Positions 9,342-39,756 of a stretch of 50,390 bases of DNA are shown piece after piece (the stretch's first letter is position 1; every line of letters begins with the position of its first letter). The notes beneath the pieces were generated by a model. That model made no database searches. It was not told where the DNA came from and was given only the letters and a program-made list of their open reading frames with translations. A program made the position numbers and the translations under genes. The DNA is from Desulfuromonadaceae bacterium UBA2294 (GTDB lineage: Bacteria > Desulfobacterota > Desulfuromonadia > Desulfuromonadales > UBA2294): NCBI GenBank assembly GCA_002345625.1, contig DDWE01000026.1, positions 581-50,970 of the forward strand, written 5' to 3'.

Positions 9342-9342
9342 A

Positions 9343-10650: not shown

Positions 10651-10659
10651 GAGCGACGG

Positions 10660-11307: not shown

Positions 11308-11309
11308 AG

Positions 11310-12056: not shown

Positions 12057-12123
12057 AATCCAGATCAAATTGAACATGTGACGGATCCCGCTTCCGGGAT
12101 CGTAAGAAAAAGGAACAAGAGAT

Positions 12124-12237: not shown

Positions 12238-12249
12238 GAGGAACAGACA

Positions 12250-12618: not shown

Positions 12619-12629
12619 GTGGAGGAACC

Positions 12630-13022: not shown

Positions 13023-13042
13023 GCGAATAAAGGAGATCGACG

Positions 13043-13672
13043 TTGGCGAGATATACCGGTTCCGTCTGCCGTCAGTGCAGACGTGAAAACATGAAATTGT
13101 TTCTCAAGGGCGACCGCTGCCATACCGAAAAATGCGCTGTTGAGCGCCGTAACTACGCTCCGGGTCAGCATGGTCAGGGGCGGATCAAGGTTTCCGATTA
13201 CGGGACCCAGTTGCGCGAAAAGCAGCGTGTCAAGCGTACTTACGGTCTGCTCGAGAAGCAGTTTCGTGACTACTTCTTTGAAGCGGATCGCCTGAAGGGC
13301 GTCACTGGCGAGAATCTTCTGGTTCTGCTTGAGCGTCGCCTCGACAGCATGGTCTTCCGTCTCGGTTTTGCGACCTCGCGCAATGAGTCGCGTCAACTGG
13401 TTCGGCACGGCCACTTCCGCGTCAATGGTCGCAAGGTGAATATCCCGTCCTACCAGGTCCGCCCGGGGGACGTCATTGAGGTGCGCGAGAAAAGTCGCGA
13501 GATCGCCCGTATCAATGAAGCCCTCGACGGCGTGATGCGGCGTGGCCTCCCTTCCTGGGTCGAGCTCGATCGTCCAGCCTTCAAAGGCACGATCAAGACT
13601 TTGCCGGTGCGTGCAGAAATGACCACGCCGGCGTTCCAGGAGCAGCTGATCGTCGAACTTTACTCCAAGTAA
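13043..13672 (+). CDS. rpsD: 30S ribosomal protein S4 (uS4)
   Basis: 209-aa ORF with a TTG start, beginning [26 protein letters not shown]. Confidence 0.97.
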
Positions 13673-20179: not shown

Positions 20180-20195
20180 CGTCGCACCCTCCTTG

Positions 20196-21422: not shown

Positions 21423-22089
21423 TTTCAAGTTGCCCGTCACGCAGACGGACAACACGTTTGGCGTGGGCAATCACTTGCGGATCGTGGGAACTGAACAGAA
21501 AGGTGACGCCCTCTTTTTCATTCAGTTCGCGCATCAGGTTCAGCAGCTCTGCTGCCGTATGGGAATCGAGGTTGGCCGTCGGCTCGTCGGCCAGGATCAC
21601 GGCCGGTTTCGGGGCGATGGCGCGGGCAATGGCAACGCGCTGTTGCTGACCGCCGGAGAGCTCCCCCGGGCGCCGATTCTTGAGCTCGGCAATATCGAGA
21701 CGCTCAAACAGCTCGTCGATGCGGGCCCGTCGCTCGGCCGGCGCGATCCCCTGCAACAGGAGGGTAAATTCGGCATTCTCCGCCGCCGTCAGAACCGGGA
21801 TCAGGTTGTAGGACTGGAAGATGAAGCCGATACGATGCAGCCGGAAATCGGCCAACTGGCGCGAGGAGAGATCGTCGTAGTTGACGCCATCGACGGCAAT
21901 AGCGCCTTCCGTTGGACGATCGAGGGCTCCGACCATATTGAGAATAGTGGTTTTGCCGCTGCCGGACGGACCGGCGAGAACGGCGAAATCCCCCGCCTTG
22001 ATAAACAGGCTGAGTTCAGAGAGGGCGGCGATGTGCTGGCTGCCGCTGGTATAAATTTTGGTCACATTGCGCAGTGCGATAAGGGACAT
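21400..22089 (-). CDS. ABC transporter ATP-binding protein (LolD/MacB type)
   Basis: Walker A GPSGSGKTT, signature LSGGQQQRVAIARA and Walker B ILADEPT are all present. Confidence 0.93.
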   Translation of the reverse strand: MSLIALRNVTKIYTSGSQHIAALSELSLFIKAGDFAVLAGPSGSGKTTILNMVGALDRPTEGAIAVDGVNYDDLSSRQLADFRLHRIGFIFQSYNLIPVLTAAENAEFTLLLQGIAPAERRARIDELFERLDIAELKNRRPGELSGGQQQRVAIARAIAPKPAVILADEPTANLDSHTAAELLNLMRELNEKEGVTFLFSSHDPQVIAHAKRVVRLRDGQLENDVRQPL

Positions 22090-22196
22090 GCCGGTGTTTC
22101 TCCGTTAGCGGCGAGGTGTGAGCCGCGATTTTATGATGTCACTACAGCGGTATAAAACAAAAGCGTTCAAAACATAATTAAAAGTCAAACCCGATC

Positions 22197-22273
22197 ATCA
22201 CGAAGGAGACGAAGCACACGAAGAGAGGCAGACACCCTTGTTTTAACTTCGTGCTCTTCGTGCCCTTCGTGGT
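22197..22273. repeat. Imperfect inverted repeat built from 9-nt CACGAAG-containing units, lying inside an operon gap
   Basis: The left arm (22197-22223) is ATCACGAAGGAGACGAAGCACACGAAG. The right arm (22247-22273) is CTTCGTGCTCTTCGTGCCCTTCGTGGT. The reverse complement of the right arm matches the left at 22 of 27 positions. The loop is 23 nt. Confidence 0.7.
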
Positions 22274-22300
22274 GAACAGCTCTTGCAGATTTTTTTGTCT

Positions 22301-23533
22301 TCAGCTATTGCGCATCGCCACCGCTGGCGCAGTGCGGGCCGCGCGGTTGGCCGGGTAGAAAGCGGCCAGCGCAGCGAGCAGCGGCATCAGAATCGCCATG
22401 CGTAGCATGTACTCGAAATCCCAGGTGGCGCGCAGGACCGGGTCGAAAATGACGCCACCGAACTCCATCGACTCGGGCAGAAAGCGGCGCAGGTCGATGC
22501 CGACATCGGTCAGGTACCAGGTCAGCAGGCTGCCGAGTGCGCTCCCGAGAAGCATGGCGATCAGGCCGAGCAGGAGCGCTTCGCACAACACCATGGCACG
22601 CAGACGCCAGGGGCTGGCTCCGAGGGCTAACAACAGGCCGAACTCCGGCAATCGTTCCATCACCGCCATCAGCAGGGTATTGACGACACCGATGCTGACA
22701 ATGGCGACAATGACCAGAAAAATGAATTTTTGACTGGCATAGTCGAGCTTGATTGCATTGGCGAGGTTCGGCATCGCCGCATCCCAGGGGATCGCCTGAA
22801 GGTCACCCGGCGGCAACAGGGCGCGCACCCGTTGCAAGACGGCACCGCTCTCATCCGGACGATTGAGCATGATGGCGATTTCGTGCACGGCATCCGGACG
22901 CCCGGCGAGGAGGGCGGCACGTTGCCGTCCGACCATAACCAGTGATCTGTCGATATTGCGGATCCCCGATTCGACGGTGCCGCGGACAAACAGCAGTTCG
23001 CTGGCCAGTTCCCCGTCGGCGCCCTGGGCGGTGACGACAAACTTCTGACCGATTTCAAGGCGCAGTTCCTGCAACAGTCGACTGCCGATCAGCGCGTCGC
23101 GGCCATCGGCACTCGGCAGCAGGGCCGGCAGGTCGAGTCGACGCAATAGCGGGTTGACCAGCCCTTCGGCGGTCGGATCGATGCCGGTGAGCAGAATCCC
23201 CCGACTCTCCCGGCTCGATTGTGCCAGCGCCGGCAGGTAGAGTCGCTCGACCACCCCGTCGACGCCGGGAAGTGCCGCAATCTTTTGCGGCAGGTCTGCC
23301 GGCACAAAGGTGAGGCGGTCGTCGCGGCTGACGGCATAGTCGCCGCGGTAGATGGAGATATGGCCGGAACCGGCGCGAACGCCGTTGTCGATCATCTGCG
23401 CATAAACGCCAAAGGAGAGGTTGTGAAAGCCCTGCACCAGCATGAGGCTGAAACTCATGGCGATCAGGGTGATCAGGGTTCGACGGCGATTCCGCCAGAG
23501 ATTGCGCCAGGCTAAAGTGAGCGTCATCATCAA
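22301..23533 (-). CDS. ABC transporter permease, FtsX/LolC-LolE/MacB family
   Basis: 410 aa. Begins LAWRNLWRNRRRTLITLIAMSFS (TM1), followed by a large periplasmic loop and then three C-terminal TM segments. Confidence 0.88.
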   Translation of the reverse strand: MMMTLTLAWRNLWRNRRRTLITLIAMSFSLMLVQGFHNLSFGVYAQMIDNGVRAGSGHISIYRGDYAVSRDDRLTFVPADLPQKIAALPGVDGVVERLYLPALAQSSRESRGILLTGIDPTAEGLVNPLLRRLDLPALLPSADGRDALIGSRLLQELRLEIGQKFVVTAQGADGELASELLFVRGTVESGIRNIDRSLVMVGRQRAALLAGRPDAVHEIAIMLNRPDESGAVLQRVRALLPPGDLQAIPWDAAMPNLANAIKLDYASQKFIFLVIVAIVSIGVVNTLLMAVMERLPEFGLLLALGASPWRLRAMVLCEALLLGLIAMLLGSALGSLLTWYLTDVGIDLRRFLPESMEFGGVIFDPVLRATWDFEYMLRMAILMPLLAALAAFYPANRAARTAPAVAMRNS

Positions 23534-23535
23534 GG

Positions 23536-24762
23536 TCAGTCCATCCTGATCGCGGCGACCGGTTGCAGCCGGGCGGCCCGTCGGGCCGGGAACACCCCGG
23601 CGATCAACGTGGTGAGCAGCAGCATCAATGTCGGGTCGAGCAGGTTGCGCAGCTCAAGGACGGTGTGCAGGCGTGGCGGCAGGGTGCCGCCGGCGTAGCT
23701 GATCGGTGTAATCCAGGCCGAGAGATCGAGTCCGTTATCGCGCATGAGCGCACACAGCACCAACCCACCGGCAACGCCGAGGCTGGCTCCGAGCAGCCCG
23801 AGCAGGATCGATTCAAGCAGCACCAACAGGCGAATGCGTCCCGGTCGCAGACCGATGGCCATCAGGATGCCGAATTCGCGGGTGCGCTCCATCACCGACA
23901 TGAACAGGGTATTGAGGACGCCAAGGCCGGTGGCGAAATAGAGGATGACGCTGAAGATCATCCGACTGACATCAAAGGAGGCGATCGCTTCGCGCATCTG
24001 GGGCAGCAGGGTCCCCCAATCGACGATGCTCACCCCTTCGGGCAGCAGTGGGCGCAGGCGCGCGGCAGTTTCTGGTGCCGACATCGGATCGGCGATCGCC
24101 AGCGCCACCTCATGAACCTGCCCCGGCAGGGCCAGGGTGCGTTGCAGCCAGCCAAGCGGAACCAGCAGCAGGCCGTTATCATGCGCACTGTCACCGGTCT
24201 TGAAGATGCCGCGGACAATCAGCAGGTCGTTGCCGATGGAACCGTCGGCGGCCTGGGTGACAAAAACCAGCTCGGCGCCGGGTTTGACCCCGAGGCGTCG
24301 GGCCAGGGTTTCACCGATGATGGCGCCGCGGTCATCTCCATCGTTTAACGCTGAGCCGGCAACCAGCTGCCGTTGCAAACTGGTGACGCCGGCCTCCTGG
24401 CTCGGGTGGACGCCGAGCAGTTCCGCCGGGTAGCTGTTGTCGGTGTGGGAGATCAGGCCGTAGCCGCGCAGGCGGGGCGATAGTCCGGTCACCTGGTCGC
24501 TGTCTGCGAGCCTCTCAATAAGGGGGAGATCGGTTTCAGCCAGCGTGGTGTAGAGATCATGGTTCTCCTGATAATCGCCTTCGCTGATCACCAGGTGACC
24601 GTGATACTGCTCGGTCGCCGAAGCGAGGATATCGCGCAGCATACCGGAGAAGATACTCAGGGCGAGGATCAGCAGGGCGAGGGAGACGATCATGGCTGAC
24701 AAGGTCAACAGCGAACGACGACCGTTGCGCCACAGATTTCGATATGCAAGAGAGAACAGCAT
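23536..24762 (-). CDS. ABC transporter permease, FtsX/LolC-LolE/MacB family
   Basis: 408 aa. Begins LAYRNLWRNGRRSLLTLSAMIVS and has the same topology as its neighbour. The gap to the next gene is 2 nt. Confidence 0.88.
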   Translation of the reverse strand: MLFSLAYRNLWRNGRRSLLTLSAMIVSLALLILALSIFSGMLRDILASATEQYHGHLVISEGDYQENHDLYTTLAETDLPLIERLADSDQVTGLSPRLRGYGLISHTDNSYPAELLGVHPSQEAGVTSLQRQLVAGSALNDGDDRGAIIGETLARRLGVKPGAELVFVTQAADGSIGNDLLIVRGIFKTGDSAHDNGLLLVPLGWLQRTLALPGQVHEVALAIADPMSAPETAARLRPLLPEGVSIVDWGTLLPQMREAIASFDVSRMIFSVILYFATGLGVLNTLFMSVMERTREFGILMAIGLRPGRIRLLVLLESILLGLLGASLGVAGGLVLCALMRDNGLDLSAWITPISYAGGTLPPRLHTVLELRNLLDPTLMLLLTTLIAGVFPARRAARLQPVAAIRMD

Positions 24763-24769
24763 GTAAGGG

Positions 24770-25504
24770 TCAGTTTTTCAGGTTGCGCAGGGAGAAGAAA
24801 GCAGCTTTGATCGAGATATCGAAGTCGATGGCATCGTAATGGATCACGGTCTGTTCATTTGGCTTGTCCAGCGGTTGCACTGTCATCCGCAACGGAATGA
24901 CGCGTCCAGCGACGCGGGTGACCTCGTCAAAGACGATCTCCCGCACCGGGACCATTTTTTCGTCAAAATAGGTGACCCGACCCGGAACCTCTTGCGGCCG
25001 GATGATTTCATAGACCACCTTGCCCCAGATCACCGCTGCATCCGGTTTCGGCAGACAGGCAATGCGATACTGCTCCGGAGTCTCCTCGAGCAGCTCAAAG
25101 GTGTAGTCTTCATCGATGTGGTTGGCCTTGACCAGATCGTCGTTGGTGATGTGACTCCCCATCCAGGCCCCACCCATCATCGAGGGGGGGACCTTGATCA
25201 CCCGATCGACCTTCGGCAGATAGTTCCAGACATTGCGCTCGACCTTGAGGGTTGCGACGCCCGCCTCTTTGGCCGGCGCCAGAATCCGTACCAGAAAATG
25301 CTCCCGCCCCAGCGACCACGACTCCATGGTCAGGGAGCGCTCCCAGTGCTCGGCGCGTACCTGCATGGTCATGACGGTCTTGGACGACAGGCCCATGTAC
25401 TGTTGCTCAATTTTACGGATCAGTCCGCGCAGACCGGCGGCCGCTGCCAAGCTCGGCAGCAACAGAAAAATGATTAGAAAGGCGAACCGGGATGGACGAC
25501 GCAT
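24770..25504 (-). CDS. LolA-like outer-membrane lipoprotein-sorting (carrier) protein
   Basis: 244 aa with a signal peptide. The motif VWNYLPKVDRVIKVPPSMMGGAWMGSHITNDDLVK is typical of the LolA_like family. Confidence 0.8.
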   Translation of the reverse strand: MRRPSRFAFLIIFLLLPSLAAAAGLRGLIRKIEQQYMGLSSKTVMTMQVRAEHWERSLTMESWSLGREHFLVRILAPAKEAGVATLKVERNVWNYLPKVDRVIKVPPSMMGGAWMGSHITNDDLVKANHIDEDYTFELLEETPEQYRIACLPKPDAAVIWGKVVYEIIRPQEVPGRVTYFDEKMVPVREIVFDEVTRVAGRVIPLRMTVQPLDKPNEQTVIHYDAIDFDISIKAAFFSLRNLKN

Positions 25505-26661: not shown

Positions 26662-29600
26662 TTACAGCCGGTCGATCCAGGACAGGGCGTCCTTAACCGA
26701 GGTCTGGTCGAATTTGAAGCGGAAGTTCAGGTAGGGGCCCTGGGCCGTGTAGTTGCCCTGGGCGAAATCGTCGTCACGATAACCGGTGACGTTGTAGCCG
26801 AGGCTGACCCAGAGATTTTCCGCCGGATTGTAGCCGACCGAGCCCCCACTGCGCCAGTCGATTTGGCCGATCTCCCAGGTGTGCAGGGCTCCACCGTGCA
26901 CGCCGACATCCCATTTCTGACCAAGGTCGCGCCGGTATTCGGCCGAGAGCAGATCGGTGTAGCCGCTCCAGGTCTGATCAAGCAGGTCCTCGCTGACAAA
27001 TTTGCAACCATACTGGAACGATAACTGATTGATCCGGTCCGGCTTGTAGTTGGCGTGTAGGTTGTTGATCACGCGCCAGCTGCGCGAGCCGCCGCTGCCA
27101 CCGGTCTGTTCACTATGGGTATCGAGCCGATCAAGGAGAATCCAGCGGCTGCGGTCGGGACGCCAGACTCCGCTGAGGCTGATCTCGACATTGTTTGAAT
27201 TGCCGCCGGCACGCTCCGAACGGTACAGGGTGGTGCGAGCGCCGAGACCGACTCCGGGCTGGATCCGGCCGGTGATGCCACTGGCGAGCCCGTAGCGGTC
27301 TTCGCTGTCAGAGGTACGGAATTCTGCGCGATTCCACCATTTCCAGTTTTCGCCTTCGGTCGCGCCACCGAGGGCCAGGGCGGTAAAGTCATCGTCCGCG
27401 GCGGCTCCCGGAACGGCCGGATTGTAGCGGTCGGTGCTGTTGCTCAAGGCCTGGGCCCGATCGAAGGAGAAATCGAGGGTCCAGCGTTTGACCTGCCATG
27501 ATTGCTGCAGACCAAACAGGGCAAGGAGACGGCTGCTGTTGTCGTCATTGACGGTACGTTGTACCGAGCTGTCGATGCGTCCGCCCTGCCAGGGGGTGGA
27601 ACGCAGACCGAGACGACTGCTGTTGCCGCCGCCGGAATCGCTGTGGATAAACTCCTGCTCACCGTAGATCGACAGCGGCTGCATCACTTTGAATTCAGCG
27701 CCGAGCAGGGTGCGCGTCGGGTAATCGACGTTTTCGTTGTTGCCGATCGCCTGCTCGTGGCGTGCCTGGAGGTTCAGGCGGCGCAGCGGCTGCCATTCGC
27801 TGCCAGCAAAGACCTGGTTGGAAGGGAGGTGACTGCCATCGGCCAGTCGGTCTTCGGCGCGGCGCGCACCAACGCGCAGGTTGGATTTGGCCTGTTGCAG
27901 GGTGACGGCCCCCTCAATGACATTGCGCCAGGCGTTGGTGTCAATGCGCTCTTCGCGGCTGATCAGACCCTCAACCCCGAGCTGTTTGTTCAATTGATAA
28001 TCGGCCTGGGCGCCGATTTTGCGCGTCGAATCTTCACCGGCGCTGGTTTGGCCGAGCCCGAAACCGCTCTCTTGTTCGCGCCACCAGACCTGACTGTTGA
28101 ACCGGTTGGAAGAGTGCTTGAGTTCGGTCAGCCAGGCGGTGGCGTTGTTGTCAACACCGAGATTGCGATTTTCTGTTCTGGCCAGTTCGGCCCGCAGGAC
28201 AGTGGCGTCAGTCAGGTTCAGCGTGACGTCGCTGCCGTAGAGACTCCCTTTCTTGCTGCCGAGCTCTTCACGCACGTAGGTGGCACCGATTTCGGCACGA
28301 TTGCCCAGTCGGGTGGCGGCGCGGCCACCATAGGTCATGGCACTTTCACTGCCACTGGGGACTTCGTAATCGACGACAATAAAGATCGGGTTGAAGTCGG
28401 CATCGCGGCTTGGGACCGGAGCCTTGAAAAACAGGGTGCCGCTGTAGGGGTCGAGGTCGTAGTCGACGTATCGGGTCAACGGGCGCTGCAGCAGGACAAC
28501 GTCGCTGCGGAAGCGATCACGGGTCTCCAACATCAGCTTGTCGGAGTTTTCAACGATCAATGTATGGCTCAGGCGGTAAAGGCCGGAGGTGCCATCCCCC
28601 TGAATTTCATCGCGGACGAAGGCCTGGCCGGTGTCGCTGGCAAAGGCAACAGCGTCGCCTTGCTTGCCGTGCCACTCGGTCTTCACCCCGGTTAAACTGC
28701 GGCTGTAGCGCGAGAGCTCGGTGACGGTCAGGCCGGTGTCGAAGTCGCCGAACAGCGCATAGAACTGATCGCGTTCGATCTTTAAAAACAGGTTGCGGCT
28801 GGTGCTGGCGTCGTTGTGTTGAACACTGGCGTCACCGTAGAGCAGGTAGTAGCGGTTCGGGTCGATATCGTCGTGCAGGCTGCGCCCCTCGCGGTTTGGC
28901 CGGGCGCTGTCGTAAGCGGCGGTGACCAGCCATTTCCCCTGTACTTTCCCCTTGGCGTAGAAGGCGACGCGACCATCGTTGTAGAGATCCTCCTCCACAT
29001 CGGCGGCCGATTCCATGTTGCCGCTGATGGTGTTGTAGCCGACCGTCCCTTCTGCCAGGCCGACCAGGATCCAGTCCTTACGCTGCTCGCCGCCGACATC
29101 AACCGTCAAGTCGATGGTCTGGTCGACATAGACCAGTTGACTCTGATAACGCCCGCTGGCCATCACCGGCGCGAAGCGGACAATCCCATCCTCGCCGACA
29201 TCGATGGTCGAGGCCGATTCTGGTTGGTCAAAAGCACCGACCTGGTTACGCCAGGGACGCAGATCACCGCCATGGATTTCAACCGTGAACGGGGTGGCCA
29301 GAACCGATCCCTGTTCGTCCAGTGCCTGCAAACGGATCTGCAGCGGTGTGCGCCCGTCGGCGACATTCCCGGCGACATCAGCAACGACCAGACTGGCGAT
29401 GCCGCCGGTGCGCAGCAGTTTAATCGTCTGCTCGAAACGGGGATTGCCAAACGGATCGATCCCCTGCAGCACCAGATTGTGTGCTCCCGGGGCGCCGAGA
29501 TCGACGCCGATGTAGGTGTAGGTTGTCTGGCCGCTCTCGCTATCGGCGAGGGTCGCACCGATTTTTCCGGGCGCAATCTCTACCGTATCGAGCAGCAGGC

Positions 29601-32493
29601 GCGGCTTCAGTGTGCTGTCGAGGCGGACGCCGATAGCGCTGATCGGCTGTGCCAGCGTACTGCCGTCGGCCGGATAGAGGATACCAGGTGACAACGCCGA
29701 CGCCTTCGCTGCAGCCGGTTGCGGCCGGACCGATGCGGTTATGGATTGTGCCGGACCGGCATCGGCGGCCATCTGGTCGAGGGCCGGATCGACCACCACC
29801 CGGTGTAATACGCGCAGATCGGTGCGGCGGTTTTTCGCCATGCCATCCACGGTGGTGTTGCTGGCGATCGGTTCAGCGGCGGCCATGCCGCGCACGACAA
29901 TCTGCTCGGCAGAAAGCGGCAGGGCGGCGGCCAGTGACTTGGCAACAGCTTCGGCGCGGGCGGTGGACAGCTCGCCATTGTCACGATAGGCGATCCCCTC
30001 CCGCCAGCGGATGCTGCGCGCATCGGTGTGGCCGACGACGACAATCTTGATCAGATCGAGTTTTTGCAGCTCGGCGACAATGGCATCAACTGCACGCAAA
30101 TCTTCTGTGCTGAGTGTGGCTTCCAGGGTCGCAAAACGGGGCTGGAGCAGCAACTCCTGTACCTCGCGGCGTTCGCTGCGGGAAATCCAGACCAGAGAGC
30201 TCTCCGCTGCGGGAGTCACCAGGTCCTTGTCGGTACGCGTATCGAAAACCAGATGGGCGCTGGCCGGCATCTCTGTGGTTTCGGCGCTACTGTCGATCAG
30301 GGTGCGGAAACGGACTGTCTCCTGCCAGTCGCCGCTGCGTTCAGGCAGTGCGAAGATCAGGGTCTTGCCGTCGTGTTGCGGATCGGCGAGTGCCTCGCCA
30401 GACAGTTCACTGCTGCCGGGGAGATACTCCACCGCTGCCGGAAGCTCGACCTGCAGACGACGATTGAACAGCGGAATCTCGCGGCCGGAAAGGTTAACGG
30501 TGTAGGTCGCGGCAGAACCGGTCCCAAATTCATTGTCCAGGGCAATGGTCACCTCACCGTTGATCGGTTTGCGTGCCAGGTGAAAATCGACCCGCCACAG
30601 CGCCCCCTGCTGCACATCAATAAATCGGGATTCGGGGCGGCCGGCAGAGCGGCTGTCGTTTTCGCAGTCGAGGATTTCATACCCGACCGGGATGGTTTCC
30701 GTGTCGAGTTGCACCACGTGGCTGCCGGGTTGTACCGAAACAAAATGGTAACGGCCGGTATCGTCGGTGACGACGTTGCTGCCATCTTCCAGGTAGATAC
30801 GGATGCCGCCAAGTCCGGAGAGGGTGGTCTCATCGGCGTCGCAGTCGCCATCAAAGACCCGGCCGATGAGGAACGATTCGCTGCGGAACAGATCTTCAAT
30901 CACTTCGACCCCGGCACGTCCTTCATTAGAAATAATCGCCGGCAGGACGGTTGAGGCAGCACGGGCCCGGTTGATCGCCTGCCCGGGCTTTGCCCCGGCT
31001 CCGACCGCGACCGCGTAACGGATAACGGCCGTGGCACCGGCAGCAAGGTCGCCGACGGTGAAGGTCAGGCTGCGGCCATCAGCGGAGAGGACTGGCGTCA
31101 GTGGGGTGCCGGTACTGCTACGGGCCGAGCCGTCACGATAGCTAAAACCGAACGGGAGGCGGTCGGTGATCGTCACGGCCGGGACGACAGCGGTGTCGGT
31201 GTTGGTGACGCTGACGCTGTAGGCGAGGGTTTCGCCGATACCGATGCTGCTGCGGTCGGCACTCTTTTGCAACCAGAGGATGCCAGCGGTGGCGGTCGGA
31301 TCGAGCGGGACATCGATCCGGATCGCCGGACCGGGGCTGATGGTGAAGACGCCGCCGTAGGAGTCGGGTGCCAGCACGACATAGCCGCCGGCCGGCGCCG
31401 GGTTGGTGGACGGGAAGTTGTAGCTGGCCAGCGGCGTGATCTTCAGACTGTAATCCCCGGCTGGAATCAGCGGAAAGCGGTAGCCGCCGGGAGGGAAGTT
31501 GTATGTAACCGTACCGATGGTGAAACTGCTGCCGGTGATGACATGGCCGGGGAATGCGACCCCGTCGTCGCCGACAACAGTGGTTGCCTCGACGCCGGTG
31601 GCGTTGTCGATGAGGGTCACTTCAACCCCATCGACCGGTGTGCCGGTAAAACTGTCGAAGACTGTCCCGTAGGGGTCGACCAGAGCCTCGTCGCTGCTGC
31701 CATCGCCGTTGATCGGGTCGCGGTAGTCGACGGTGAGAGTGTCGTCGATGGCACTGTACAACTGACCGTCGAAGCCGACCGCTGCGGCCGGGGCCAGTGG
31801 CAGCGAACCGAGGAAGACGCCGGTATCGGGACCGGTTTCGGTCAGGCGCAGATACTCAAAATCGCCGGTCATCGTGCTGCGGATGGTCAGCTCAATGGTG
31901 TCGACCAGTATGGCGTCGAGATTGCGATCGCTATCGCTGAGGCGGATGACCACCAGCTCGCTGCCGGAAAAGATTGTCCCCGGAGTCAGGTCGCCGGGGT
32001 CGGGCGTCGGCAGAATGGTGCTGAAGACGCCGGTGCTGGCGCCATCGCTGCTGAAGCTGGTGGCCGGTACCGTGGTGCCGGCGGGGTTGGCGGCGTAACG
32101 GAGCAGCTCAACGACGCCGGGAGTCGGTAGCGGGACCGTCGCCGTGCTGACCGTGTTGGACAGAATGACAAGGGAGTAGCCAAAAGCATCGAAGTTGAGC
32201 TGAGCGGTGTTGTCGATGCTGGCACCGGCCGGCGGAGCGGCGGTTGCCACATTCGGCAGCAGGGCCATGGTCAGCAGGAGTAAACAGGCCAGCTTCTGAC
32301 CGCGACGCACCAGAGTGTTGATGGTCGCGGACACAAGCCGACCGTTCAGCCGGCTGCTTGCGCAGCCGACTGAACCGGTCGAGAGGTGAACCAATAATCC
32401 GGTCATCCAGGCACAGCTCTCCCGGCGCCCGGCCGCAAGAACGCTGCGGAGGCGAAGGAGTTGTGCCCGGATTGTGCTCAGACGAAACAGCAT
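26662..32493 (-). CDS. Giant secreted envelope protein (gene D): Ig-like (DUF11, Cna-B/SdrD-B-like) modules, an OmpA-type peptidoglycan-binding module, Big-like modules, and a barrel-like C-terminal region of about 800 aa
   Basis: A single uninterrupted 5.8-kb frame. The signal-like segment is [23 protein letters not shown]; the true start is uncertain, with in-frame ATG 32406 and two GTG codons further downstream as alternatives. A DUF11 module reads [32 protein letters not shown]. The OmpA-like module ([12 protein letters not shown]...[10 protein letters not shown]...NRRTDLRVL) lies at about nt 29800-30130. The C-terminus reads [35 protein letters not shown]. Confidence 0.85.
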   Translation of the reverse strand: [1943 protein letters not shown]

Positions 32494-32550
32494 GAGCGAA
32501 CCAGATCGGTTAAGGGTTGGCGTGTATTGCGCCAGCCGGGTTAAGTGTGA

Positions 32551-33666
32551 CTAGTCGACGGTTACTTCAAAGGTGATTGTGGCAAATGACCCGGCAGCGA
32601 TGGTGCCGACATTGACGCCACCCGTGCTGTCCCCTACCAGCGCACCATTCAGGCGAGTTGTACCAGGTGTCAGTGTGGTGTAGATCGGTGCCGTATCAGT
32701 CACCACAACGTTGCTCAGATCCGTCGCCTCATTGTTGGTGATGGTCAAGGTGTAGGTGATGGTGTCCCCCGGTTTGGCGGTGAGGGTGCTGGCTGCTTTG
32801 GCAAAGGACACGTTCAGTGAATTGATGGTAGTGATGACCTGGTTGCCGACGGCCAGTGAGGTGCTGTAGTCGACGGTGGCGCCGCCAGAGTCGGTACCTG
32901 TGGTGGTGAAGGTGACGTTCGTGGTGTAAGTTCCAGTGGTCTCCCCGACATTCAGGGTGCCGGTGTCCTGATCCATGGTCAGGGAGCCGTACTCACCGAT
33001 AGGGTCAGCGGCGGCGGCGGTGCTGGCAGCGACGCCGTGGGCGGTGATGTCGTCAACCAGCTGAATGGTGGTCGTGACTTCCGGCGTACCGGTTGTCTGG
33101 GCGGTGCCGGCCGTGATGGTGCCGACGGTGTAGGCGTTGCCGTTGAGGATTACGGTTTCGGTGCCGGCAAGACCAGTCTCGGCCCCGGCGGGCAGGCAGA
33201 CTTCGTCTGCCCCTGCAACAACGCCCTGGCAAGCGACAACGATGCCGCCCCAAAGAGTGATGTTGTCGATGGTGAAGGTCTCAACCGAGTCGGTAGCTAT
33301 GGTTGCAGAATTGGTCGAATTGATGGCCGTTACCGTGTAGGTGTCAGGACCGTTGCTGTTGGAGGTGATGGTGTAAACGTAGCTGACGGAACCGCCGACG
33401 GTTGTCGACCGGGTCAGTGGGGTGACGCTGATCGTCGGAGCTGCAGCCAGAGTGTCGACGGTGACCGTGGTGCCGTTCGAGGTTTGATTGATGCCGGTCG
33501 CTGCAAGAAAGTCGTAGGTGACCGAGGCTTCGTTGAAAATGGTGGCGCCGGCGCTGACCGCTGCTTGAGCAGCAGAAGGGAGCAATACGCTGGTGATCGC
33601 CAACAGGGCGAGGCCGAACAGAGTGTTGCGGCCACTACGGAAAAAACGGGTTCGTTGCTGATTCAT
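32551..33666 (-). CDS. Secreted Thr/Gly-rich DUF11-repeat protein, candidate fibre subunit (gene C)
   Basis: Start taken at ATG 33666 (MNQQRTRFFRSGRNTLFGLALLAITSVLLPSAAQA), which follows an AAAGGAGA SD; the ORF track opens at 33846. The C-terminal DUF11 domain reads KPGDTITYTLTITNNEATDLSNVVVTDTAP. Confidence 0.85.
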   Translation of the reverse strand: MNQQRTRFFRSGRNTLFGLALLAITSVLLPSAAQAAVSAGATIFNEASVTYDFLAATGINQTSNGTTVTVDTLAAAPTISVTPLTRSTTVGGSVSYVYTITSNSNGPDTYTVTAINSTNSATIATDSVETFTIDNITLWGGIVVACQGVVAGADEVCLPAGAETGLAGTETVILNGNAYTVGTITAGTAQTTGTPEVTTTIQLVDDITAHGVAASTAAAADPIGEYGSLTMDQDTGTLNVGETTGTYTTNVTFTTTGTDSGGATVDYSTSLAVGNQVITTINSLNVSFAKAASTLTAKPGDTITYTLTITNNEATDLSNVVVTDTAPIYTTLTPGTTRLNGALVGDSTGGVNVGTIAAGSFATITFEVTVD

Positions 33667-33930
33667 GATGGATCTCCTTTTGTTACGGTTGATGTTCTTG
33701 TTCTCGGTTAGATGACGTTGCTTCAAGTTGCATTGGTCAATTAGGTCAGTCTGCATGGCAAATTCTCCAGCGCTCCGGCGGCTTGCCATGACGCCACCAT
33801 CGGCGTCTTCCTGGCAGTGGCCCGGCCCGCTCATGGCGGGTGGCAAGGTTGCGTTGTTGATGGGTGTGCAAAAAGGAAGGGTTCATGGCGTTCTCCTTTG
33901 ATTATGAGTGATCGAAAAAAGGGTATCGGT

Positions 33931-34413
33931 TTATTTAACCCGGACCTTGAACCCCAACTCGCCCTTGCTGCCGGCGGGGATGGTCTTCAGGTTCCAGCGA
34001 ATGGTCGTGATATCAGCCGCCGTTGCCGGGCGCGGTTTTCCGGTTCCGGCATCGGTAATCTTCAGGTCGACGAGCGGAGCGAAGGTGGCCCCGCCATCGA
34101 TGGAAAAATCGATGCTGGCGCCGTCGCCGGTGGCGCTGCCGTCGATATAAACGGTCAGGTCGGGCACTTTGTTTTTAAAGGCCAGATTGGTTGCCGGTGC
34201 GCTGGCGGTGTTGGCGTAATTCAGGGTGTAGATCAGCTCAGTCCCCGGTTCCGCGGCTTCGGCCGGGACCCGCTTGGTGACCGGAGTACCGTTTTCCATG
34301 ACGACAATCTCTTTTTCGGCCTTAACGGTCAGGGTGATGGGTTGTTCGTCGGCGGCAAATGCCGGTAGGGCGAAGGCCAGAAACAGCAGGGTGACAATAA
34401 GGTAGCGGTACAT
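33931..34413 (-). CDS. Small secreted single-DUF11-like-domain protein (gene B)
   Basis: 160 aa. It has a signal peptide (MYRYLIVTLLFLAFALPAFA) and a strong AAAGGAGA SD. The domain reads EPGTELIYTLNYANTASAPATNLAFKNKVP. Confidence 0.8.
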   Translation of the reverse strand: MYRYLIVTLLFLAFALPAFAADEQPITLTVKAEKEIVVMENGTPVTKRVPAEAAEPGTELIYTLNYANTASAPATNLAFKNKVPDLTVYIDGSATGDGASIDFSIDGGATFAPLVDLKITDAGTGKPRPATAADITTIRWNLKTIPAGSKGELGFKVRVK

Positions 34414-34433
34414 GGTTTGATCTCCTTTTTGGT

Positions 34434-37400
34434 TTAGCGGACCTGAACCTGGAACTGTAGATAAAAACGGCTGCCGGGGGCCATCGATCCGGTCAGCGGC
34501 TGGCGCCAGTTGGTGACATTGCCATCGGTCCCGGCCGGAGCGCCGCCATTACCGGAGGCCGGGGTGTAGCCGAACGTGGTATCGCCTGTCTGGGAGAAAA
34601 GGGGTGTGCCAAGTGCCAATCCAGAGGCCGGTGCCCCTTCGACAAAGTTGATATGGACACCGGGGGCGTAGGTGTCGGTCGCCAGATAAAGGTACGGGCT
34701 CAGGTAGTCATCGATGTAGATATTGGTCGCCGGAGCGCTGCCGGAATGGTCAACCTGAATCCAGTAAGTGAAATTTTCACCCGGTTTGGCGCTGCCGGAC
34801 GTTGACCACTTGATAATGCTCAAAGGTGGTGTCGGCGATGCGACGGCGAATGAACTGAGGCCGTAGTCGCTGATCGCCCCTTCCGTCCCCTCGTCGGCAT
34901 CGGTGCGAATGGTCCAGTTGCCGGAGGCTGCGTCAGCCGGCAGGGTGTAGATGTACTCAAAAGTTTTGGTTGCTGCACCGGAGTCAGCGTACAGGCTCAT
35001 CGGTAGGTCGTTGACTTGCACGACCCCGAGGGCATCGGTCAGGGTGAGTCGGGCAGCGCTGATGTCATAACTGCCAAAGGGGTCGGAGACCGTGCTACGG
35101 ATGTGGACCTCGGTCCCCGGAGCGACCGGCTGCGCCAGTGGTGCTCCGAGCGCATCAAAGAGAGCAAAGCTCTCGACATTGATGACCGTGGCGCTGTTGA
35201 GCTCGATGCGTGAGGTGTCGTTCGGGGTGATGGTTGCGTTGAATGGATGCAGCCAGACCTCTCGGTTAGACGTGTTGGCAACGACCAACTCGATCACCGC
35301 CCCCTGGGGAATGGATGTTGCCGGCATAGTGAACGAAAACGGATAGGTTTGCGGTGCCCCATTGGTCAGCGTTTGGCTGACGGTTTGTGTGTCAAGGTCG
35401 ACAGTGGTGGCACCGAGACGGTAGCGCAGGGTCAGGTCCAGCGAGACAGTGCGGTTGCGGTTGCTCTGAACGCGCATCTGCAGGGCGAGCGCGTAGTCGG
35501 CATTCAGATTTAGAATTGTCTGCAGTGCCGGACTCAAGGTCATGGTTGCGGTGGTTCCACTGGTCATCCGATAGTAGTTGATCGTGTTGCTCGAAGGGGT
35601 GCGGCTCAAATCCCCGGTCAGGCCGTTGCCGGTTGTCGGTGCCTGCACATAGAGCTGCTTGAGTCCGGATCCCGGAAGGGAGGCGCCGGCGATGATCAGG
35701 GTCGGTGCGGTCAGGGACGCCCCCGGTCCACCGGGGTTGATCACGGTGGCGCTGTTGGCAATGGGGCTGCCATTGGCGCCACTGACTTTGACCGTGTAGG
35801 TGATGGTGACAGTGTTTTTGGCCGGGACCGTAATTCCGCCAATATCGAGGAACCCGGTGCCGTTGGCGCCAGTGCCGGAGTAGGTGGAGTTGTTTATCCC
35901 GCCGCCGGTGCCGGTGACCGTAAAAGCGGTGATGTTTCCGGGGATGTCATCGGTGACCTGTACATTGCTGGCCGCAATCCCGCCGGTCTCCTTCAGGGTG
36001 ATGATGTAGCGCAGGATGTCGTCAAATTCGACATCGCCGCCGTTCTCATCAACGACGGTTTTGGTCGAAGTGGAGAGGTCGGGTTGCATAATGGTGAGTG
36101 TATAGTCCTCAACCTCGCCGTTGGTGGCAGAGCCACCGGGGGTGGCGGTGGTGACAAAGGGATCGGTGGTCAGCCGAAAGCGTGCGTAGGTGGTGCCGCC
36201 GGCAAGACCTGAGAGTCCGCTCCAGTTCAGAGTGGCTGTGCCGTTGGTGGTGCCGGTGGCGACATTGACCGAGACGCCTTCCGCCGTTTCGAAGGATCCG
36301 TTGCCATTAAAATCGATCCAGCCGACCAGATGGGCGAGGGAGCCGGTGGTGTTGTTCACCGTGACATCAACGGAATAGGTTGTGGAACTGGTGGCCAGAG
36401 CCGGAAAGGAGGCGATGCCATCCTCGTCATCACTGCCGGTGAGGTCGTCGCCATCGGCGGATGTGGTTGGCTGACCGGTCACTTCGTCATCGGGCAGGTT
36501 GGTGCCGAGGAAGATCTGATTACTGATACCGTGCCGCGGTCCGCCGCTTGAGGTCAGGGTGCGGTAGCTTTCGGGGGCGTCTCCGAAGTCGAAGCCCGGC
36601 AGGGTGCCGGAGCTGAAGATCAGGTGGAAAAAGACTGCGGAGTCCCAGTTGCGGTCGCCGGCATCGGCAATGGCTGCCTTGACATGATAGGTGGCGCCGG
36701 GGACGACGCTGATCGGCTGGTAGATGTAGTTGGTCCAGCCGTCGAGCTCGAGGTTGCTGTTGGTCGTGGCGACAGTGTTGTTGCCGCCGGCGGTATTGCC
36801 GTTGCTGTTGTCGGTGTAGTAGGCGGTGTTGGTGAGGCTGCCACAGTTGCCGATGTTGCCATATTGACCGACGAGACCGGTGTTGACCCAATTGATGGAC
36901 GTCAGGTCGCCACCCGGGGTCTTGGCAAAGTTTTCGGCGTTGTTCGAGTAGGGGCCATTGATGCCGGGGCCGCTGACAAAAATTCCGGTAACATCGTTGA
37001 AGGCGGTGCAGACATATTCGGGGAATTCATCCGAGCCAAACTGGAAGGGGATGGTCATGATCGATTGACTCGGGACAATGTCAAATTCGATGGCGATATA
37101 TTCGCCGTTGGCTGTCTGTCCCTCGAGGGCGATCATGTCCGGGTCGGTGACGTTTCCGCAGAGGGCGTTTGTCCAGCCTGATTGATTGTTTGGTGAGACC
37201 AGAGGGTCTGTTGGTTTGAGCGGGCCGGTGCCGAGAACCACGCCGCTGGCATCACCGAGGACCGGGCCGGGGCCGGTCGGGGTTGTCCCCTGGCTGAACA
37301 GCCCAACCGCCTGCGTACGGTTGGCGCAACCGTTGTTTGTGATGACCAGATTGCTGATGGTCACCCCGGCCCCTTGCAGGGCGGCCGTAATCTGCGCCGT

Positions 37401-37610
37401 GGTGACGCCGTCATTAGCGACAGTGTTGACGACGATAGCGTGACTGAACGATGGGGGAAGGGAAAAAAGCAAAAACAGTAAAACAAGGGACTTCTGCGCA
37501 AGGCAATTAAAGCGAAAAAGGCCAGAAACCTTAAACAGCCGGGCTGTGAAAAGGCGCAAGATTGTCACATGAAGCGCGCTAAATTGTCGATGATACGGCA
37601 AAAAGTGCAT
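34434..37610 (-). CDS. Large secreted adhesin-like protein (gene A): choice-of-anchor-L-like head, GEVED domain and DUF11 repeats
   Basis: 1058-aa ORF. The head segment DPDMIALEGQTANGEYIAIEFDIVPSQSIMTIPFQFGSDEFPEYVCTAFNDVTGIFV matches the choice-of-anchor L pattern. The segment FDFGDAPESY...WIDFNGNGSFE...NGEVEDYTL is a GEVED domain. DUF11 modules include ILRYIITLKETGGIAASNVQVTDDIPG and PGENFTYWIQVDHSGSAPATNIYIDDYL. The true start may be the in-frame GTG or TTG codons 42 to 51 nt downstream of ATG 37610, ahead of the signal-like segment KSLVLLFLLFSLPPSFSHA. Confidence 0.85.
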   Translation of the reverse strand: MHFLPYHRQFSALHVTILRLFTARLFKVSGLFRFNCLAQKSLVLLFLLFSLPPSFSHAIVVNTVANDGVTTAQITAALQGAGVTISNLVITNNGCANRTQAVGLFSQGTTPTGPGPVLGDASGVVLGTGPLKPTDPLVSPNNQSGWTNALCGNVTDPDMIALEGQTANGEYIAIEFDIVPSQSIMTIPFQFGSDEFPEYVCTAFNDVTGIFVSGPGINGPYSNNAENFAKTPGGDLTSINWVNTGLVGQYGNIGNCGSLTNTAYYTDNSNGNTAGGNNTVATTNSNLELDGWTNYIYQPISVVPGATYHVKAAIADAGDRNWDSAVFFHLIFSSGTLPGFDFGDAPESYRTLTSSGGPRHGISNQIFLGTNLPDDEVTGQPTTSADGDDLTGSDDEDGIASFPALATSSTTYSVDVTVNNTTGSLAHLVGWIDFNGNGSFETAEGVSVNVATGTTNGTATLNWSGLSGLAGGTTYARFRLTTDPFVTTATPGGSATNGEVEDYTLTIMQPDLSTSTKTVVDENGGDVEFDDILRYIITLKETGGIAASNVQVTDDIPGNITAFTVTGTGGGINNSTYSGTGANGTGFLDIGGITVPAKNTVTITYTVKVSGANGSPIANSATVINPGGPGASLTAPTLIIAGASLPGSGLKQLYVQAPTTGNGLTGDLSRTPSSNTINYYRMTSGTTATMTLSPALQTILNLNADYALALQMRVQSNRNRTVSLDLTLRYRLGATTVDLDTQTVSQTLTNGAPQTYPFSFTMPATSIPQGAVIELVVANTSNREVWLHPFNATITPNDTSRIELNSATVINVESFALFDALGAPLAQPVAPGTEVHIRSTVSDPFGSYDISAARLTLTDALGVVQVNDLPMSLYADSGAATKTFEYIYTLPADAASGNWTIRTDADEGTEGAISDYGLSSFAVASPTPPLSIIKWSTSGSAKPGENFTYWIQVDHSGSAPATNIYIDDYLSPYLYLATDTYAPGVHINFVEGAPASGLALGTPLFSQTGDTTFGYTPASGNGGAPAGTDGNVTNWRQPLTGSMAPGSRFYLQFQVQVR

Positions 37611-37930: not shown

Positions 37931-38932
37931 TCAGGAATGCAGCGTGCGTAGCAGGGCGGCAAGGGTGGCGGCTTCGGTTTTAGGGGATAAGTCGGGGCGG
38001 GGGGCGGTGGCCAGACGTTGTCTCTGCTCCGGGTCGTTGATCAGTCCTTCTGCCTGACGCAAAAACTCACTGGAATCGCTGTAGAGCAGCCCGTTGCCGC
38101 CGGCATCGATGATGGCGGCATTGCCCGGAATATCGTGAGCGAGAATCGCTCGGCCGACGGCGAGGGCTTCGAGCAGGGCGCCGGGGAGCCCTTCGCTTCG
38201 CGAATGATTGAGCACGACATCGGCAGCGGCGAGGGCGGCCGGCATTGCTCCTGACGGGATCACGCCGAGCCAGGACGCCCAAGGGCGTTGAGTGACGGCA
38301 GCCAGGAATGCGGCGCCATAAACGGGGTCGAGGACCGGACCGCAAAAAGCGAGGCGAAACTCTTTGTGTCGGGCGGCAAGAGGGTCGCAGAGCCAGAGCA
38401 GGTCAAAATTGGCCTTAATCGGCCGAATTCCGGCCGGGTGCAGGAACAGAATGGCATCGGCAGGAATCTGGTGCTGCTCTCGCAACAGGTACGGGGTGGT
38501 GCCGAGTTGCACCGCAGGGGGGAGGTGATGGACCTTGTTGCCCCAGGTCGCGATCAGATTAGCGGCAGTGAGGTGGTTCTGGGTCAGCAGCAGGTCGGCG
38601 GATTCAAGCACGGCGCGGATGACTGGCCCCTGTTCGGAATCGTCGAGGCCGCCATGGATGTCGGTGCCGGTTAACAGAACTGCCGCCGGTAGCGGCAACT
38701 CATCGCGGCTGCGCAGCCAGGCACGTCCGGTACGCCAGGCATGCAGCAGCAATACGGCGTCGGGGCATAACGTCTTGCAGGCTTGCCGGTATGCGGGCAG
38801 GGGGTCGACGTCCGGCAGCAACGCCAGCTCCGAGAAAAGACCAAACTCGGCAAGCCCGGCCTGCAGGCGCCGGGCGGTGACGAGATTGCCGGTTGCTTCC
38901 GATTGGTCAGGGACGGTAATCAGCAGGCGCAT
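37931..38932 (-). CDS. GT-B fold glycosyltransferase (GT4-like)
   Basis: 333 aa. The C-terminal half carries the E-x7-E motif region HSRSEGLPGALLEALAVGRAILAHDIPGN. Confidence 0.75.
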   Translation of the reverse strand: MRLLITVPDQSEATGNLVTARRLQAGLAEFGLFSELALLPDVDPLPAYRQACKTLCPDAVLLLHAWRTGRAWLRSRDELPLPAAVLLTGTDIHGGLDDSEQGPVIRAVLESADLLLTQNHLTAANLIATWGNKVHHLPPAVQLGTTPYLLREQHQIPADAILFLHPAGIRPIKANFDLLWLCDPLAARHKEFRLAFCGPVLDPVYGAAFLAAVTQRPWASWLGVIPSGAMPAALAAADVVLNHSRSEGLPGALLEALAVGRAILAHDIPGNAAIIDAGGNGLLYSDSSEFLRQAEGLINDPEQRQRLATAPRPDLSPKTEAATLAALLRTLHS

Positions 38933-39756
38933 TGTAAATCACCAAAAGAGATCAGCTCGATGCCGCGTGCGCGAACTAGCGCTGCCACCGTCGGAGCGGA
39001 CAGCGCGGCGAGCTCGGTTTCGCGCGCCAAAGTGGCAAAGGGATGGGTCAGGTCACGATAGCCGGGATGGACCATCAACTCCCAGTCGCCAGGCTGGAGC
39101 TGTGTGAGCAGGGCCAGCAGTTGCGTTTCGTTGAGTTGATTAAGCAGCGACATGCCGTACAGACCCTGCGGAGTTATGATGTCAGCTTTGTGCAGCGTTT
39201 TGGTCAAAGATGGTGCCCGTTGCCGATAAAGAGCCAGTTCGCCACTGAGTTCCAGCGGGGCGTCATCGTTTTGATCCAACGGTAGTGGCAGTCGTGCCCG
39301 TCTGATGCCGCAGGTCTGGGCCGCTGTGCAGAAGGCCTCCGCAACCGGTGTAAACAACGCACAATGCTGATGGGTGTCAAGATGGTCAGGGGTGACTCCG
39401 ACTGTGCAGGCCCGGTCGATCTGGGCCAGAAACTCACGGGTCAAAGTTGATGTTTCGATGTGGCCTGTTTCGAAACTACGCCGGGCAGCGGTTTTGCCAA
39501 GAAAGCGTCCGGAATCGTCGGTCAGTCCGGGGATCGGGCCGCTCAGTGCAGTTCCTTCAGACAGGTTGAGGTGAATACCAAGGGGTAGCCCCTCGGCGGC
39601 GGCGTGCTGTGCCGCTTCACGCCAGGTCGGTCCGGTGGTCAGCAGTGAGGCACTGGTGACAACGCCACGTGCAAACGCGGCAAAGATGCCTCGATCGGTG
39701 GCGGCTCCGTTGCCGAGGTCGTCGGCATTGACAATCAGACGGGCTGGCGGCATCAC
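38920..39756 (-). CDS. ChbG/HpnK (YdjC) family carbohydrate deacetylase
   Basis: 278 aa. Contains LIVNADDLGNGAATDRGIFAAFARGVVTSASLL, the YdjC-family N-terminal signature. Its end overlaps the glycosyltransferase start by 13 nt. Confidence 0.8.
   Translation of the reverse strand: MMPPARLIVNADDLGNGAATDRGIFAAFARGVVTSASLLTTGPTWREAAQHAAAEGLPLGIHLNLSEGTALSGPIPGLTDDSGRFLGKTAARRSFETGHIETSTLTREFLAQIDRACTVGVTPDHLDTHQHCALFTPVAEAFCTAAQTCGIRRARLPLPLDQNDDAPLELSGELALYRQRAPSLTKTLHKADIITPQGLYGMSLLNQLNETQLLALLTQLQPGDWELMVHPGYRDLTHPFATLARETELAALSAPTVAALVRARGIELISFGDLQCAC

Follow-up and report, generated by a model that had tools for sequence, protein, structure and literature searches.

A conserved locus of split DUF11/CLIPPER proteins and a predicted giant barrel in a Desulfuromonadaceae bacterium: a candidate surface-fibre system

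The subject of this analysis is a cluster of four genes, here called A to D, in a 50,390-nucleotide stretch of DNA from Desulfuromonadaceae bacterium UBA2294 (assembly GCA_002345625.1, contig DDWE01000026.1, positions 581 to 50,970 of the forward strand; "the window", whose own numbering is used throughout). The cluster very likely encodes a dedicated surface system that is conserved, consists of several proteins and has a base bearing a barrel. Its subunits are proposed to join head-to-tail by hairpin complementation of truncated DUF11/CLIPPER domains and probably to be locked covalently, a full mechanism to which we assign a probability of roughly 55%. The whole analysis is computational and combines sequence comparison with predicted structures. 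The four co-directional open reading frames (ORFs) described in the initial annotation are present at the following coordinates, and signal-peptide-like segments are seen at the N-termini of all four translations. The signal peptides have Ala-x-Ala-like sites at their ends and no Cys there.

34434..37610, minus strand: gene A, ORF of 1058 amino acids (aa); tip adhesin candidate
33931..34413, minus strand: gene B, ORF of 160 aa; signal peptide and one truncated DUF11/CLIPPER domain
32551..33666, minus strand: gene C, ORF of 371 aa, Thr/Gly-rich, extendable upstream to a TTG at 33846; shaft subunit candidate
26662..32493, minus strand: gene D, ORF of at most 1943 aa; proposed base subunit

Part of the evidence for this proposal is the way a single isopeptide-forming domain appears to be divided among the proteins. 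In the CLIPPER structure PDB 9IFR, an isopeptide triad of Lys715, Asp748 and Asn806 has been demonstrated experimentally (PMC12617251). An internal DUF11 domain of D holds the equivalent residues K410, D444 and N508 within one domain, with the Lys on the first strand, the catalytic Asp, and the Asn on the last-but-one strand. In this intact domain the strand equivalent to the acceptor ends is followed by a loop and then by "...QAINRARAAS...ISNEG...". In A, B and C the terminal domain stops earlier, and the mature N-termini of C and D carry a separate hairpin with an Asn.

34437..34826, minus strand: C-terminal acceptor of A (truncated DUF11/CLIPPER domain) with Lys934 and Asp967
32554..32838, minus strand: C-terminal acceptor of C (truncated DUF11/CLIPPER domain) with Lys290 and Asp324, ending ...ATITFEVTVD and stop
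33451..33561, minus strand: donor hairpin at the mature N-terminus of C, AVSAGATIFNEASVTYDF...TSNGTTVTV, with Asn45
32131..32241, minus strand: donor hairpin at the mature N-terminus of D, AAPPAGASIDNTAQLNF...LSNTVSTATV, with Asn95
30952-31272, minus strand: intact DUF11/CLIPPER domain in the stalk of D (aa 408-514), 42.2 bits against a cutoff of 24.6

The truncation is uniform. All 138 acceptor ends compared (23 A-like proteins, 42 B, 59 C-like and 14 of an extra subunit, X, from other loci) stop about 1-3 residues from an F/Y-x-V-x-V/I strand. Every A-like protein (23/23) ends in F/Y-x-V-x-V/I-polar-stop; A itself closes with ...FYLQFQVQVR and a stop directly after the penultimate strand, and B with ...GELGFKVRVK and a stop. 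In C, the DUF11 match (aa 288-370, 36.5 bits against a cutoff of 24.6) covers only positions 4-84 of the 114 in the profile. In the alignment with 9IFR, the Asn strand comes next after the strand where the acceptors stop. Because the ends precede that strand, what is missing from the terminal domain in each of A, B and C is precisely the Asn hairpin, and the triad there is complete only if the Asn comes from another segment or another protein.

The donor motif G-[TD]-x-I-x-N-x-A-x-V-x-Y lies right after the signal peptide in mature C and D. A strict regular expression finds it in 48/59 C-like, 10/14 X and 41/56 D proteins, and most of the others carry it by eye. It also stands at the mature N-terminus of 63 (62%) of 102 diverse D-like proteins taken as an independent set, and random 40-aa windows from those proteins match it in 0.4% of cases. 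A has no donor hairpin at its N-terminus, the motif occurs in 0/23 A-like proteins, and its matches in 2/42 B proteins both fall at spurious internal positions. In the C family the donor Asn, acceptor Lys and acceptor Asp are invariant in 22/22 sequences (N45, K290 and D324 in the window); the acceptor Asp is also kept in 54 of the 59 C-like and in all 23 A-like proteins.

A and B are thus acceptors without a donor and D is a donor without a terminal acceptor domain, so the architecture, read in this way, requires pairing in trans. Complementation is an economical reading because the triad is split over the two ends of C, with A and B holding only the Lys/Asp half and D only the Asn half. All four proteins would be exported by Sec, with A, B and C each ending in a CLIPPER domain that has the first-strand Lys and the catalytic Asp and lacks the last beta-hairpin. 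The N-terminal hairpin of an incoming C or D, bearing the Asn, would complete the truncated domain of the subunit ahead, and a spontaneous Lys-Asn isopeptide would then probably lock the joint. The fibre would then read A-C(n)-D, grow at its base and be terminated by D. A would be the tip since it has only an acceptor and a lectin-like head, C a repeating or adaptor unit of the shaft since it has both donor and acceptor, and D the last subunit since it has only a donor. The tip, shaft and base roles suggested in the initial annotation are supported by this donor/acceptor pattern, which gives them a structural rationale.

At the envelope, the OmpA domain of D would hold the base to peptidoglycan, and the barrel of D would be the probable exit pore as well as the anchor. 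It is the only candidate route across the outer membrane because no other gene is conserved with the system, and a barrel in both roles would imply that the fibre grows from its base. B could act as a reversible cap or chaperone for free hairpins that does not lock them, or as a minimal tip. More tentatively, the locus could represent an unrecognised pilus pathway of diderm bacteria that works without chaperone, usher, sortase or ATPase. Split CLIPPER domains would then drive polymerisation, the fibre would pass through, and be covalently held on, the roughly 38-strand barrel of D, and B would serve as a dead-acceptor chaperone for hairpins.

The locus is not a chance cluster, as the gene set recurs across phyla. 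The C-terminal region of D belongs to a large unnamed family, with at least 599 homologues in a word-indexed search and 3344 clusters at 50% identity in an exhaustive search (E<=1e-3). The barrel family is confirmed at no fewer than 582 loci among species-representative genomes. The annotations of its members go no further than "OmpA family", "DUF11 domain-containing" or "hypothetical". The barrel region is always C-terminal, in host proteins of 1.8-3.0 thousand residues. Among the loci listed, the hosts include Desulfobacterota (Geomonas, Geomobilimonas, Geobacter, Desulfosarcina, Desulfatitalea and Smithella), Nitrospirota, Gamma- and Zetaproteobacteria, and Myxococcota. By habit they include Geobacter relatives, sulfate reducers, iron oxidisers and marine Gammaproteobacteria. 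The gene set is kept in hundreds of bacteria from sediment and soil. The longest D homologues (P0145, P0230, P0256 and P0260) reach 2.7-3.0 thousand residues; in P0145 and P0230 the length comes from extra N-terminal stalk modules of D and not from fusion to a C-like protein.

Gene neighbourhoods were compared at 80 fetched loci. A B homologue lies upstream of D on the same strand at 54 of the 55 loci with enough flank, 1.1-4.5 kb away. The gap between them is filled by C-like genes, one to three of them at other loci, and X stands ahead of B at some loci. Of the 47 loci whose upstream flank exceeds 6 kb, 27 have an A-like gene, either upstream of B or downstream of D. Clustering of all genes over the 80 loci returned only D, C/X, B and A-like proteins as recurrent neighbour families, with no PapD-like chaperone or other additional conserved gene family. 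The expectation that homologues of A, B, C and D would be syntenic elsewhere is therefore borne out, and the synteny, together with the lack of any other recurrent family, makes the system look self-contained. On one Desulfuromonadales contig (L025, 1-14656), an A-like gene and B lie between the members of a tandem pair of D-type genes, so genomes can carry more than one copy of the system.

The candidate start codons of D, at 32493 (ATG), 32406 (ATG) and 32310 (GTG), all lack a clear ribosome-binding site, and the length of 1943 aa is an upper bound because the start is ambiguous. The signal-peptide-like stretch ends at aa 84, which leaves up to 84 codons (32242-32493) before the mature start; mature D probably begins at aa 85. 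The donor hairpin is followed by these parts:

30214..32130, minus strand: N-terminal stalk of Ig-like modules
29827..30135, minus strand: OmpA-like peptidoglycan-binding domain (aa 787-889), 48.4 bits against a cutoff of 27.2
29089-29493, minus strand: two Ig-like domains before the barrel (AlphaFold2 model)
26665..29076, minus strand: predicted C-terminal giant beta-barrel of about 800 aa (AlphaFold2)
28414-28626, minus strand: predicted small beta domain (aa ~1290-1360) inserted after the sixth strand, with the motif GDGTSGLY...DY-x-D-x-x-x-GTLFF

The OmpA domain has PomB, MotB, TssL and YfiB as relatives in the PDB, and a sequence profile search of the PDB with D returned OmpA domains only. 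The earlier domain calls for A, C and D (choice-of-anchor L, GEVED, DUF11 and OmpA) are upheld by Pfam and NCBIfam. In D the OmpA and DUF11 calls lie above cutoff, and matches to SdrD_B and CarboxypepD_reg score below theirs. The TraB equivalog NF033763 was rejected for D, with 29 bits against a cutoff of 700 and a match confined to the OmpA region.

No Pfam or NCBIfam family covers the last ~950 residues of D. AlphaFold2 modelling of residues 1001-1943, with an alignment of 85 sequences, gives a large beta-barrel with a predicted local distance difference test score (pLDDT) of 79 and a predicted template-modelling score (pTM) of 0.76. The model contains, in order, two Ig-like domains, 6 strands, a compact 6-strand beta domain and 32 further long strands. 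Counted by DSSP, the predicted barrel has about 36-38 strands, and the model places the insert after strand 6. This inserted domain carries the most conserved motif of the barrel family, and it may have a plug-like role. Foldseek matches the barrel only to very large barrels, the best being SlpA (E 8e-10, template-modelling (TM) score ~0.2), followed by SprA, LptD, FimD/PapC, TonB-dependent receptors and MtrB. Weak Pfam OMP_b-brl hits occur in 7/25 family members. A transmembrane-type barrel in D, as first suggested, is thus predicted with confidence by the model, the giant-barrel matches and the weak OMP_b-brl hits together. Identity with the usher family (PF00577) was rejected, since neither D nor 25 homologues gave a hit at Pfam E<=1; the FimD/PapC fold match (E 3e-5, TM ~0.2) is at the level of a generic barrel.

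Gene A combines its acceptor with an adhesin-like head:

36627-37394, minus strand: choice-of-anchor L head (aa 73-328), E 1e-42
36093-36329, minus strand: GEVED domain (aa 428-506; Pfam/NCBIfam)
35742-36035, minus strand: intact DUF11 domain (aa 526-623), 41.4 bits against a cutoff of 24.6

A-like proteins at other loci have the C-terminal ~420 aa in common with A and differ in their heads, which include a legume-type lectin, eight DUF7933 modules, or SpaA_3/4. A match of A to RrgB_K2N_iso_D2 in NCBIfam is weak (20 bits against a cutoff of 30).

B is the most conserved small partner of the system. Its single domain scores 33.3 bits against the TIGR01451/DUF11 repeat (cutoff 24) and 23.0 bits against Pfam DUF11, just below the cutoff of 24.6. 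The initial claim that all four proteins carry DUF11-type modules therefore holds at the Pfam cutoff for A, C and D, and for B only at that of TIGR01451. Of 42 B-family sequences, 27 have Asn at the catalytic-acid position, 14 have Asp and 1 has Gly; in the window the residue is Asn81. B also has strongly conserved motifs of its own, FSIDGGK and YTHIRW. The Asn at the catalytic position and these motifs suggest that B is a non-covalent, possibly chaperone-like acceptor.

The AlphaFold2 model of mature C is a compact monomer (pLDDT 88.9, pTM 0.76) in which residues 7-34 form ordered strands (pLDDT 78-89). The ordered N-terminus would fit a docked hairpin; as the prediction is of a monomer, the docking would presumably be in cis. 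Compared with known structures by Foldseek, the model resembles tandem Ig folds only. The C-like paralogues at other loci have 340-550 aa. X, which is absent from the window, is an extra subunit of about 335 aa found at many related loci between the A-like gene and B (examples are L028 4120-5124, L055 3968-5008 and L065 2639-3649, among others). It carries a donor end as well as an acceptor end, and its acidic motif, LTDA-x-D-x-DAGD, could be a metal site.

Several results weigh against the proposed mechanism. C could close on itself with its hairpin in cis, and B, the best conserved small partner, mostly has Asn where the catalytic acid would be needed for a lock. The first-strand Lys is present in just 14 of the 23 A-like proteins, and a few D and X donors have S, T or D in place of the Asn. 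Profile tests of the hairpin-acceptor pairing are weak. Chimeras of acceptor and donor from the window proteins raise the Pfam DUF11 score by 4-7 bits and extend the match to position 113, and a reversed-donor control does so equally. In 26 B+D chimeras, DUF7619 was matched by 10/26 with real and 5/26 with shuffled donors, and DUF11 by 26 and 24, respectively, a difference in the expected direction but not a decisive one. A hidden Markov model of the tail of the intact DUF11 domain of D recognises donor hairpins only marginally (p=0.05 against shuffled and p=0.001 against random segments), and a search of PDB sequences with an acceptor-donor chimera gave nothing useful. A natural acceptor-donor (C-D) fusion was looked for among homologues of 2.3-3.0 thousand residues and not found. 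The topology of D also poses a difficulty, as the OmpA domain would be periplasmic and the hairpin would sit at the surface fibre, so the stalk is assumed to thread a barrel. The probability of the full mechanism stays near the value given above because the profile tests are weak, because the Lys and Asn are not universal, and because trans pairing, the bond and the passage through the D barrel, like the role of B, are what we infer from these data.

The D barrel could instead be a dedicated translocon with A, B and C as its cargo, sorted by the F-x-V-x-V-polar-stop ending, and with the hairpin of C closing in cis to leave surface monomers or loose complexes. The uniform C-termini could indeed be a sorting signal, a very large barrel with a plug-like insert would suit a translocon, and both the compact C model and the weak profile tests agree with this arrangement. 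Yet a sorting signal needs no conserved Lys/Asp/Asn triad, A and B keep the Lys/Asp features of an acceptor while owning no hairpin, and the hairpin of D is conserved although D has no truncated domain to complete. Monomer predictions of strand-complemented pilins, moreover, commonly self-complement, which lessens the weight of the C model. We consider the translocon unlikely. Less likely still is that D is a staple between outer membrane and peptidoglycan like Deinococcus SlpA, with a periplasmic stalk, B and C as periplasmic partners of its hairpin, and A-type adhesins as hitchhikers. The best fold matches of D are SlpA complexes, its OmpA domain is canonical, and a periplasmic stalk is the simplest topology because the stalk precedes that domain. 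However, SlpA is matched with low TM-scores (0.2), and both an SLH domain and a coiled coil are lacking in D; a tether, in addition, needs no variable set of paralogous subunits, and the A-like partners combine surface-adhesin heads (lectin, choice-of-anchor, GEVED) with the same acceptor module.

It is very improbable that the four genes are unrelated neighbours, that is, independent DUF11 adhesins and an OmpA-family outer-membrane protein clustered as surface genes tend to be. DUF11 proteins are common as fibrillar adhesins, some of them single chains with an OmpA-like anchor (PMC12617251). Such a clustering is at odds with the order and content kept across Desulfobacterota, Nitrospirota, Gamma- and Zetaproteobacteria and Myxococcota, with the complementary donor and acceptor features, and with the lack of conservation of the other neighbours.

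Head-to-tail complementation, the preferred reading, has a close parallel in chaperone-usher pili (FimH-FimG-FimF-FimA-FimI, with FimC and FimD). There, incomplete Ig-like subunits are complemented by a segment extending from the next subunit's N-terminus, as is proposed here, and a tip adhesin with only an acceptor, a terminator with only a donor and growth at the base are all features proposed here as well. The plug of the PapC and FimD ushers sits after the sixth barrel strand, and the small beta domain in the D model is inserted at the same place. The differences are considerable. No PapD-like chaperone was found in the scanned ORFs of the window, nor a match to the usher family in D, and the subunits are DUF11/CLIPPER proteins in place of fimbrial pilins. 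The proposed donor has two strands, which form a hairpin with a presumably reactive Asn, and the predicted barrel has ~36-38 strands instead of 24 and is fused to the terminal subunit and an OmpA domain.

The proposed lock resembles that of archaeal threads (PMC9715654) and of Clostridium perfringens BsaA (10.1101/2024.11.04.621531), in which an N-terminal strand enters the neighbouring subunit, an intersubunit Asn-Lys isopeptide forms with the help of a catalytic acid, and no chaperone is needed. The likeness is one of mechanism only, and here the lock is proposed from residue conservation. The folds differ (BsaA is TasA-like), the cells are monoderm or archaeal and without an outer membrane, and those systems have neither a barrel nor an OmpA base. 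TasA-like or peptidase-M73-like families were not found in A to D by Pfam or NCBIfam. In its parts list the system matches the single-chain CLIPPER/DUF11 adhesin B9T28_05395 of Acinetobacter silvestris (PDB 9IFR), which has an OmpA-like anchor and intramolecular bonds (PMC12617251). Here the same parts are spread over at least four polypeptides with the triad split at each junction, and the base adds a barrel of ~800 aa.

In the man-made SpyTag/SpyCatcher and SnoopTag/SnoopCatcher pairs, which derive from Gram-positive CnaB-type domains, a domain lacking a strand forms a spontaneous isopeptide with a peptide that supplies the strand and the reactive residue. The present case would differ in being a natural split of a CnaA-like CLIPPER domain, proposed to serve polymerisation. 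D also recalls Deinococcus SlpA (30 strands, wall-binding) in combining a huge barrel with a cell-wall-binding domain, and SprA of the type IX secretion system (T9SS; 36 strands) in that its predicted barrel could pass folded proteins. D shows no sequence similarity to either, has TM-scores of ~0.2 and lacks SLH domains. T9SS genes were not found in the window scans, nor was a Por_Secre_tail-type domain on A to C.

Other assembly routes were considered and rejected. Sortase-assembled pili do not fit, as the C-termini of A, B and C consist of a beta strand and the stop, with neither a hydrophobic tail nor an LPXTG-type sorting signal, and the window scans contain no sortase. Type V pili (FimA/Mfa) are excluded by the lack of a lipobox Cys and of FimA/Mfa families in Pfam and NCBIfam. 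Type V secretion (autotransporter, two-partner or inverse autotransporter) would involve barrel families of 12 or 16 strands, POTRA domains or a TpsB partner; Pfam gave no family of this kind here, and the predicted barrel has about three times the strands. A literature lead to "DUF11 + donor strand" proved to concern DUF1102 (tafi), and leads to F-ENA anchors, CT pili, the single-chain filament GhlA of Litorilinea and methanogen DUF11 adhesins had no bearing on the locus. A search of the full-text literature, with subscription-only papers outside it, gave no description of the locus, the split DUF11 domains or the barrel family. That these genes could not at first be placed in any described pilus or adhesin pathway is supported, in that features of usher, chaperone, sortase, T9SS and type V systems were looked for and not found. 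The system would work like a chaperone-usher pilus with an isopeptide lock and belongs to neither family, since tests for features of ushers, chaperones, pilins and TasA-like proteins found none. The principle of a strand-complemented pilus is rated as known, and the assembly machinery as one without a described relative.

A Pfam scan of the larger ORFs of the window (with 9307-13672 and the smallest ORFs outside the scan) revealed no usher, PapD-like chaperone, type IV pilus gene, sortase or T9SS component, and NCBIfam gave no match to a known sorting tag at the C-termini of A to C. The absence of known assembly or export machinery noted at the outset thus applies to the scanned ORFs and extends to the related loci, where none is conserved. 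The other genes comprise ribosomal protein genes, DUF3999/DUF2339, an ABC/FtsX/LolA-like set, DUF190, an rRNA methylase, a glycosyltransferase, YdjC, an acetyl-CoA hydrolase, BamD and metabolic genes. As members of the system, the LolA-like/FtsX/ABC set, DUF190, the rRNA methylase, the group-1 glycosyltransferase and YdjC were rejected for want of conservation at related loci.

Directly upstream of A, on the same strand, 37931-39756 encodes a group-1 glycosyltransferase and a YdjC-like deacetylase, a pair that recurs beside the locus at only 1-2 of 80 loci. Glycosylation of the fibre is conceivable because C is Thr-rich and the glycosyltransferase adjoins A. Downstream, also on the same strand, lies a MacB/Lol-like exporter set (21400-25504), which consists of an ABC ATPase, two FtsX-type permeases and a LolA-like protein and is not conserved beside D elsewhere. 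Within 16044-21470, a DUF3999 and DUF2339 membrane-protein pair and an ORF of 424 aa without a Pfam match (20196-21470) share the strand of the locus. G+C content is 0.59-0.63 over ~17-41 kb and 0.51-0.56 on either flank, the left flank being a ribosomal protein operon; on these grounds the block carrying the locus may have a separate history.

If the proposed assembly is correct, two-membrane bacteria would have a further way to build surface fibres, in which strand complementation is combined with self-locking parts and the last subunit carries pore and anchor as fused portions. It would also place isopeptide chemistry between subunits in Gram-negative bacteria, where the question of isopeptides has been raised only for bonds within domains (PMC12617251), and the split domains would constitute natural orthogonal tag/catcher pairs. 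The barrel of D would possibly be the largest single-chain outer-membrane barrel known, SprA with 36 strands being cited as the largest to date. AFDB holds no uncurated predictions for proteins above 1280 residues (10.64898/2026.03.07.710327), and the D family may have gone unnoticed because of this omission. The locus thus provides a clue to an uncharacterised family of thousands of giant proteins, in hosts for which attachment to minerals, partners or electrodes matters.

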